A DNA stretch of 64,000 bases from an uncultured Bacteroides sp. (GCA_902491215.1 CABUGV010000002.1:95206-159205), one strand, 5' to 3'. Numbered from the stretch's first letter, positions 46,117-47,022 are shown. Numbers and translations are program-made. The notes: generated by a model not told the origin, from the sequence alone.

Positions 46117-47022
46117 ATGCACAAAGGTAAAACCGCCATATACATTACCATTACGGCAAGCTTGGCACTGGCATCATGCAGACCATCTCAACCATCGGAT
46201 TCATTGGAAAACAGGCTCAATGAAGCCATTGCCGGAAAGAATGCCGAAATAGGAATTGCTGTAATTGCCGGCAAAGACACCGTTACGGTAAACAACGATG
46301 CTGAATATCCGATGATGAGCGTATTCAAGTTTCATCAGGCTCTGGCAACATCTGATTATCTGCGCACACATGGACTGGAACTCAACGATACAATTCATAT
46401 CTCAAAGAAAGAGCTGAAGGAGAACACCTACAGCCCTTTAAGAGACAAATATCCAAACGGAAATATCGACATTACATACGCAGAGCTGATGGAGTACACC
46501 CTACAGCAGAGCGACAACAATGCATGCGATATTCTCTTTCAACGTACAGCAGACTTATGCCGTACTGACAGTTTCATACGAACACTGGGGATTGATAAAT
46601 TTGCAATTTCAGTAAATGAGAACGACATGCATGTAGATCCGAAATTATGCTACTCAAACTGGACTACTCCGCTCGAAGCGGCCAAACTGATTGATGCAGC
46701 ATTCACACGCGAGATTGTTCCCGACCCATATCTGTCGTTCATCCGAAATACGATGTCAAACTGCACGACCGGCAAGGACCGTCTTCCGTTTCCACTTGAA
46801 GGAAAAGATGCAAGCATAGCGCACAAAACAGGTACAAGCGACAGAGATGCAGACGGAATACTTACTGCCATAAATGATGTCGGATACATTTCTTTGTCTG
46901 ACGGCAGACATTATTCTATTGCGGTATTCGTAAAGAATTCTAAAGAAAGCGATTCTGAGACTGCAGGCATTATAGCTGAAATATCTGAGGTTGTTTATGA
47001 CTACATCAGCACGAAACAATGA
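46117..47022 (+). CDS. Class A beta-lactamase, CfxA/CepA/CblA-like subgroup
   Basis: Lipoprotein signal, the S-x-x-K motif in YPMMSVFKFHQAL, SDN in LQQSDNNACD, KTG in IAHKTGTS, and a C-terminal AVFVKNS. The architecture parallels CfxA. Confidence 0.8.
   Translation: MHKGKTAIYITITASLALASCRPSQPSDSLENRLNEAIAGKNAEIGIAVIAGKDTVTVNNDAEYPMMSVFKFHQALATSDYLRTHGLELNDTIHISKKELKENTYSPLRDKYPNGNIDITYAELMEYTLQQSDNNACDILFQRTADLCRTDSFIRTLGIDKFAISVNENDMHVDPKLCYSNWTTPLEAAKLIDAAFTREIVPDPYLSFIRNTMSNCTTGKDRLPFPLEGKDASIAHKTGTSDRDADGILTAINDVGYISLSDGRHYSIAVFVKNSKESDSETAGIIAEISEVVYDYISTKQ

Follow-up and report, generated by a model that had tools for sequence, protein, structure and literature searches.

RESULTS

Gene content of the bla locus

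The DNA analyzed here is a 64,000-nucleotide (64-kb) stretch from an uncultured Bacteroides sp. We refer to the whole stretch as the window and count coordinates from its first letter unless another contig is named. On the plus strand, an open reading frame (ORF) at 46117..47022 begins with ATG and runs for 301 codons; we call this gene bla. Three plus-strand genes precede it, and the gaps between yjbR, xth, the Pmp3 gene, and bla are 39, 25, and 21 nt, respectively. The features of the locus are as follows.

44693..44700 (+): TATATTTG, a Bacteroidetes-type -7 promoter motif (TAnnTTTG), 27 nt before yjbR, found by motif scan
44727..45110 (+): YjbR/MmcQ-family gene (PF04237), first gene of a putative yjbR-xth-pmp3-bla unit
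45150..45905 (+): xth, exodeoxyribonuclease III (PF03372; deposited as OKZ23848.1)
45931..46095 (+): gene for a 54-aa membrane proteolipid of the Pmp3/YqaE family (PF01679, E = 1.7e-10), 21 nt upstream of bla
46117..47022 (+): bla, class A subclass A2 beta-lactamase, 301 aa plus stop (ORF reading, NCBIfam, Pfam, PDB matches, AlphaFold2 model, dN/dS)
46117..46179 (+): predicted type II (lipoprotein) signal peptide, MHKGKTAIYITITASLALAS before the Cys, with lipobox L18-A-S-C21 (from the translation)
46318..46329 (+): S-V-F-K, in which S68 and K71 correspond to Ambler Ser70-x-x-Lys73 (nucleophile and general base); invariant in 52 homologs
46510..46518 (+): S-D-N, S132-D-N134, Ambler 130 to 132; invariant in 52 homologs
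46618..46632 (+): E-N-D-M-H, in which E168 (46618-46620) is the omega-loop Glu166 (deacylation base) and H172 is Ambler 170; E168 is invariant and H172 is conserved at ≥90% in 52 homologs
46825..46836 (+): K-T-G-T on strand beta3, K237-T-G239 being Ambler 234 to 236 and T240 being Ambler 237; invariant in 52 homologs
47021..47043 (no strand assigned): terminator-like inverted repeat where bla and the alpha/beta-hydrolase gene converge, with a T-rich tail on the minus strand
47066..47848 (-): alpha/beta-hydrolase gene (PF12697), convergent with bla and regarded as a neighbor only
47872..51408 (-): SWIM/SNF2-family helicase of 1178 aa (DUF8276, DUF3670, SNF2, Helicase_C), adjoining a nucleotidyltransferase gene

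An earlier reading of the same DNA, made from the sequence alone (the sequence-only reading), had placed bla between xth and a hydrolase gene. The hydrolase gene does lie downstream, but the immediate upstream neighbor is the Pmp3 gene rather than xth.

Catalytic motifs and subclass A2 signatures

Ambler numbering was assigned from an alignment of the bla product with TEM-1 and 13 database homologs. The class A boxes (S70, K73, S130-D-N, E166, and K234-T-G) occur in the right order and with the right spacing, as the sequence-only reading had stated: the distance from the catalytic Ser to SDN is 64 residues (60 in TEM-1), that from SDN to Glu is 36 (36), and that from Glu to KTG is 69 (68). The S-V-F-K box can be read in the DNA at nt 46318-46329, inside YPMMSVFKFHQAL (residues 64 to 76), where it had been reported. 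Both S68 and K71 are kept in the alignment and are invariant in the 52 homologs. The description of a downstream E…N box fared less well: the catalytic E168 is present, but Ambler position 170 is His, not Asn, both in bla and in all 13 aligned homologs.

Enzymes of subclass A2 are recognized, after the PER-1 structure, by Asp136 and Asn179 (the reverse of the TEM arrangement), a residue other than Asn (His) at position 170, Thr237, and inserted residues following strand beta3. In the bla product, D138, N181, and T240 correspond to Asp136, Asn179, and Thr237; all three are common to the aligned homologs and conserved among the 52. A 7-residue insertion relative to TEM-1 follows the KTG strand and is likewise common to all aligned homologs.

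Family assignment

The bla product scored 325.5 bits against the NCBIfam SubclassA2 model (NF012099; E = 2e-97), which is only 5.5 bits above the cutoff of 320, and 242.4 bits against the class A model NF033103 (cutoff, 200). Pfam PF13354 matched with an E value of 6e-28. A search of the PDB returned full-length matches to TLA-1 (E = 5.5e-63), TLA-3 and a Bacteroides cellulosilyticus enzyme (5tfq; E ~1e-62 to 1e-63), PER-1 (E = 1.4e-43), and PER-2.

None of the named allele families accommodates the protein. CepA (NF033102) was the best-scoring named family, at 310.1 bits against a cutoff of 660, followed by MUN (232/640), CfxA (NF033100; 229.9/625), CblA (229/625), TLA (224/640), VEB (162/670), and PER (160/650); leaving CepA and CfxA aside, scores for the named A2 families spanned 148 to 232 bits against cutoffs of 590 to 670. 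A named-family cutoff was also reached by 0 of the 52 closest homologs, the best CepA scores among them (E = 9e-156) belonging to five 292-aa proteins. The bla product is about 49% identical to an unverified CepA sequence, a figure used as a lead only. With that sequence as the probe, no verified CepA was found among 134 retrieved proteins (best match, 74 to 76%), and the comparison with CepA is based on the NCBIfam model score.

When 72,556 plasmids were searched by tblastn, no match reached 60% identity; the best were two unnamed A2 genes, one on a plasmid of B. fragilis (52.3%) and one on a plasmid of B. finegoldii (50.9%). Among named plasmid-borne enzymes, identity was 41.2% to CfxA2 (in an alignment covering 90% of the query), 38.8% to TLA-3, 38.0% to RAA-1, 37.2% to MUN-1, and 34.4% to VEB. 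The sequence-only reading was therefore right that the gene is a divergent family member rather than cfxA itself and in its expectation that no named resistance family would include it, since every allele-family model fell far below its cutoff and all plasmid matches were below 60%. Its estimate of 45 to 50% identity to CfxA was too high, and the CepA model lies nearer than that of CfxA (310 versus 230 bits).

In a collection of 5.8 billion proteins, the closest clusters were at 98% (161 members) and 88% identity, after which identity dropped sharply to ≤60%. An exact look-up identified the bla protein as OKZ23847.1 of the MAG “Bacteroides sp. 43_108,” where its entry reads “hypothetical protein BHV77_06090.” A scan of species-representative genomes returned no near-identical copy, the best match being a 48% homolog in an unrelated context in a Paraprevotella MAG; as the 43_108 MAG stands in NCBI, the region may be masked in that collection or another assembly may serve as the representative.

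Predicted structure

An AlphaFold2 model built from a 52-sequence alignment had a pLDDT of 92.3 and a pTM of 0.87, with low confidence only at its two ends, in the signal peptide and the final residues. Foldseek matched the model to TLA-1, TLA-3, PER-1, PER-2, and the Bacteroides cellulosilyticus enzyme at TM scores of 0.93 to 0.95 and rmsd values of 1.3 to 1.6 Å. The top 18 structural matches in the PDB were all A2 enzymes (rmsd, 1.3 to 1.9 Å), compared with 2.5 to 3.0 Å for the subclass A1 enzymes CTX-M and Toho-1; class A structures matched at a probability of 1.00. As modeled, the bla structure thus lies nearer to A2 than to A1 enzymes.

Because the NCBIfam, Pfam, PDB, AlphaFold2/Foldseek, and signature-residue results agree, we assign the bla product to subclass A2 of the class A beta-lactamases; it is CepA-like by best score and outside every named family. 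It is a new member of a well-known enzyme family and represents no new kind of system. One could propose instead that the protein is no beta-lactamase in vivo and serves as a penicillin-binding protein, a sensor, or a hydrolase of peptidoglycan fragments, and the marginal SubclassA2 score (325.5 versus 320) would accord with such a role. We regard this as highly improbable: Glu166 and all class A boxes are invariant, the best matches are all bona fide beta-lactamases with no penicillin-binding proteins or LD-carboxypeptidases among them, and the 301-aa product is a single domain that carries neither a sensor nor a transmembrane domain.

N-terminal signal and predicted placement

The N terminus of the protein has a positively charged n-region (K3 and K5), a hydrophobic stretch from A7 to A19, and a canonical lipobox, L18-A-S-C21. 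The 299-aa alleles retain the Cys and the RPSQ that follows it, as does the 88% identical protein of the sister species, where the lipobox reads LTAC. AlphaFold2 modeled the signal segment with low pLDDT and its h-region as a helix. From this sequence pattern, lipoprotein anchoring through Cys21 is predicted.

In the export of Bacteroidetes lipoproteins, the signal that follows the Cys bears on whether a protein is placed on the surface or on the periplasmic side. Positions +2 to +5 after Cys21 hold no acidic residues, which suggests that the bla product is probably kept on the periplasmic side rather than exposed on the surface or carried on vesicles.

The sequence-only reading had described a lipoprotein signal typical of A2 enzymes. 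The lipobox is indeed there; what did not hold is that it is typical. Of the 120 closest homologs, only 14 have a lipobox-like motif, whereas most carry signals of the Ala-x-Ala type, and BtCepA has been argued to be an unlikely lipoprotein (Stentz et al., PMC4319488), a point on which the bla product would differ from it. The lipobox is specific to the bla lineage and a few others and is not a trait of the A2 subclass.

Alleles and selection

We recovered 11 distinct nucleotide alleles of bla, and 11 of 11 were intact. Relative to the window allele, dN/dS (Nei-Gojobori) was 0.11 to 0.32 within the species and 0.15 in the sister species (dS, 0.33). A pseudogene reading was considered and rejected. 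Twenty residues vary among the alleles, and the catalytic boxes are spared except for an N/D polymorphism at residues 169 and 170 (46618..46626), next to the Glu166 equivalent, which could modulate the properties of the omega loop. The substitution pattern indicates purifying selection on a working protein.

Host lineage and its distribution

Window proteins match those of the MAG “Bacteroides sp. 43_108” by exact look-up. The PheS protein of the window is found in identical form on 217 contigs, and its next relatives, at only 87%, come from MAGs labeled “Bacteroidaceae bacterium” or “Prevotellaceae bacterium.” We infer that the host belongs to an uncultured, Bacteroidaceae/Prevotellaceae-like lineage of genus level. 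Contigs with bla and the Pmp3 gene were obtained from human-gut metagenomes of several cohorts, and the species with bla is present in hundreds of human-gut assemblies. The index of the collection lists the Pmp3 gene in 699 blocks, and the species is therefore common. The name “Bacteroides sp. 43_108” also appears in two chicken-caecum studies.

Conservation of the locus

At least 23 contigs encode the identical bla protein, and in each of them the genes run yjbR, xth, Pmp3, bla, convergent alpha/beta-hydrolase, and SNF2 helicase. So that contigs were selected without conditioning on bla, we also used the 54-aa Pmp3 gene as the query. All 25 contigs read in this way, including that of strain L022, encode a 299- or 301-aa beta-lactamase directly downstream of the Pmp3 gene. 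The Pmp3 gene is invariably linked to bla in the species and its sister species, and the two probably share one transcript. In strain L022, the SNF2 helicase gene is swapped for a 179-aa ORF of unknown family (L022 7021..7560), a strain-level variation beside an otherwise fixed bla locus.

In the sister species (contig L016), the order xth-Pmp3-bla-SNF2 is retained. Its bla and helicase products are each 88% identical to those of the window, so bla has diverged in step with its flanks. The alpha/beta-hydrolase gene is missing there, a one-gene indel that leaves very little space between the bla stop codon and the SNF2 helicase gene (L016 1464..1475).

In GC content, bla (43.6%) matches the window as a whole (43.9%). 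A Pfam search of essentially the whole 64-kb window found no integrase, transposase, or mobilization families, in line with the earlier statement that transposon hallmarks are absent nearby. By Pfam, the genes of the window are of housekeeping and metabolic types, including murB, pheS, subunits of methylmalonyl-CoA decarboxylase, dihydroorotate dehydrogenase, transporters, and glycoside hydrolases; a single tRNA gene is present, at a distance of about 10 kb from bla. Homologs of 48 to 56% identity in other lineages occupy unrelated, likewise nonmobile loci. One of these (P0019, 56%) is found as the same protein in two housekeeping contexts (L034 6001..6894 and L035 4597..5490), which hints at either two species with one allele or a relocation.

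These observations bear on whether bla was acquired recently by horizontal transfer, as an accessory or mobile gene like cfxA on Tn4555 or blaMUN-1, which is carried on a 7.6-kb island (PMC10989005). Transfer of subclass A2 genes among Bacteroidales does occur, as with cfxA and MUN-1; homologs of about 55% identity sit at unrelated loci in other genera; and the alpha/beta-hydrolase gene next to bla is itself an indel between sister species. Against transfer stand the missing integrase, transposase, and mobilization genes in the window, the lack of any plasmid copy reaching 60% identity, the native GC content, the presence of bla on 25 of 25 contigs chosen with no reference to it, and the equal divergence (88%) of bla and the helicase from the sister species. 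A recent horizontal origin is largely refuted by this evidence, and we give it very little weight.

What we found instead is a single locus in all strains sampled, with synteny in the sister species, native composition, and divergence equal to that of the flanks; the Tn4555-like surroundings for which related strains were to be checked are absent, and no other mobile context was seen. The bla gene looks intrinsic, a vertically inherited core chromosomal gene of the host species and its sister species, which agrees with the sequence-only reading.

Expression

The motif TATATTTG at 44693..44700 is the sole plus-strand copy of TAnnTTTG between the AraC-divergent intergenic region and bla, and it lies about 1.4 kb upstream of bla. 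Across the whole window, TAnnTTTG occurs 76 times against 48.6 expected, a count reached in 0 of 100 shuffles; this enrichment fits a Bacteroidota host. The same scan found no copy between the Pmp3 gene and bla. A scan with the sigma-70 consensus, which is unsuited to Bacteroidetes, gave nothing above background. The simplest model is that yjbR, xth, pmp3, and bla form a four-gene transcription unit that would be read from the motif at 44693.

A Pfam search of the window found no insertion sequence (IS) element upstream of bla, in which it differs from activated B. fragilis cepA alleles. High-level cepA expression in B. fragilis is stated to need IS activation (Rogers et al. 1994, as cited in PMC10989005). 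One may ask whether bla, like cepA before activation, is a latent resistance gene, its enzyme intact but silent, weakly expressed, or of low activity and contributing little. The absence of an upstream IS element and of a promoter motif between the Pmp3 gene and bla, with the sole plus-strand TAnnTTTG some 1.4 kb off before yjbR, would suit such a gene. On the other side, dN/dS is 0.11 to 0.32, and bla is conserved in every strain sampled. Moreover, deletion of BT_4507, a chromosomal cepA-like gene of B. thetaiotaomicron, lowered the ampicillin MIC 32-fold and abolished cefotaxime degradation (PMC4319488), so that an enzyme of this kind makes a large difference from its native chromosomal locus. 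Because of the purifying selection and strict conservation, we argue that the bla protein is made and used, and we consider a latent gene improbable, if less so than either recent transfer or a role other than that of a beta-lactamase.

Other features of the window

Two genes in the window encode proteins with a metallo-beta-lactamase fold (6658..7302 on the plus strand and 8294..9079 on the minus strand), the second of which also matches PF23023 (Anti-Pycsar Apyc1). Both are probably hydrolases or phosphodiesterases and not beta-lactamases. An orphan 452-aa ORF at 38605..39963 (minus strand) has no Pfam match, a GC content of 35%, and a GC3 of 29%, compared with 43.9% GC for the window; it corresponds to two genes in strain L003 and may be foreign or fast evolving. 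A 1421-aa sensor histidine kinase (DUF5112 and DUF5113; 20951..25216, minus strand) lies beside a response regulator with DUF5932 (20137..20859, minus strand), and this pair adjoins the genes of an ABC efflux system of the MacB type and a membrane-fusion protein (25814..30250).

DISCUSSION

We postulate that bla is an active, intrinsic class A beta-lactamase gene of subclass A2 and part of the core chromosome of its host, a reading that, on the evidence above, we hold to be very probable. If the enzyme works as its catalytic residues predict, the product would be exported to the periplasm, where Ser68 (Ambler 70) would acylate itself with the beta-lactam ring, assisted by Lys71 (Ambler 73) and by Ser132 (Ambler 130) in the proton relay. 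A water molecule activated by Glu168 (Ambler 166) would then deacylate the enzyme, and the antibiotic would be destroyed in the periplasm. By analogy with characterized A2 enzymes, the product may have a cephalosporinase or extended-spectrum profile that is sensitive to clavulanate. The cephalosporinase label and the clinical relevance that the sequence-only reading gave to the gene are thus presumptive, and the host is an uncultured commensal. The substrate spectrum is not predictable from sequence, as illustrated by MUN-1, which shows that A2 enzymes can behave unexpectedly (PMC10989005).

Among known systems, the CepA clade (B. fragilis CepA and BtCepA, encoded by BT_4507) is the most similar. 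It shares the A2 catalytic set, including E-N-D-M-H and K-T-G-T, and its genes are also chromosomal and intrinsic at the species level in gut Bacteroidales; the CepA-like 292-aa database homologs are 53 to 56% identical to the bla product. However, with a score under half of the CepA cutoff (310 versus 660), bla is not a CepA allele, and it resides in a different genus-level host at a different locus.

CfxA shares the subclass A2 fold, the motifs, and the occurrence in Bacteroidales, but it is only 41.2% identical (CfxA2) and is mobile on Tn4555 or plasmids, whereas bla has no mobile context. TLA-1, TLA-3, PER-1, PER-2, VEB, and MUN-1 have the same residues at Ambler positions 136, 170, 179, and 237 and the same beta3-beta4 insertion, and the TLA and PER enzymes are the closest solved structures (TM, 0.93 to 0.95; rmsd, 1.3 to 1.6 Å). 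Their genes are plasmid, integron, or island borne and mostly from Proteobacteria, with 34 to 39% identity of the products to that of bla, which is native and chromosomal.

A 2022 study in mBio described class A genes of non-fragilis Bacteroides and Parabacteroides that form roughly species-specific clusters, are detected by the AMRFinder HMM only, and are uncharacterized and unannotated in resistance databases (PMC8764542). The window gene follows the same species-specific pattern, except that its host falls outside the B. fragilis group, with PheS at ≤87% identity to other lineages. It is one further lineage-specific chromosomal A2 gene in a series already known from gut Bacteroidales.

Identity-based resistome surveys would miss bla because it is labeled a hypothetical protein, is at most about 52% identical to any gene on the 72,556 plasmids, reaches no allele-family cutoff, and barely passes the subclass HMM. 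We also considered a broader view, in which bla is a widespread, un-annotated reservoir of community-level beta-lactam protection in a very prevalent gut Bacteroidaceae species, with an enzyme whose attachment to the cell or to vesicles would be unlike that of the nonlipoprotein CepA enzymes. Taken as a whole, this view seems to us unlikely. The gene leaves the understanding of the class A mechanism unchanged, and its use lies in resistome annotation. If the enzyme is active, it would add intrinsic beta-lactam tolerance to the host lineage and possibly cross-protection within the gut.
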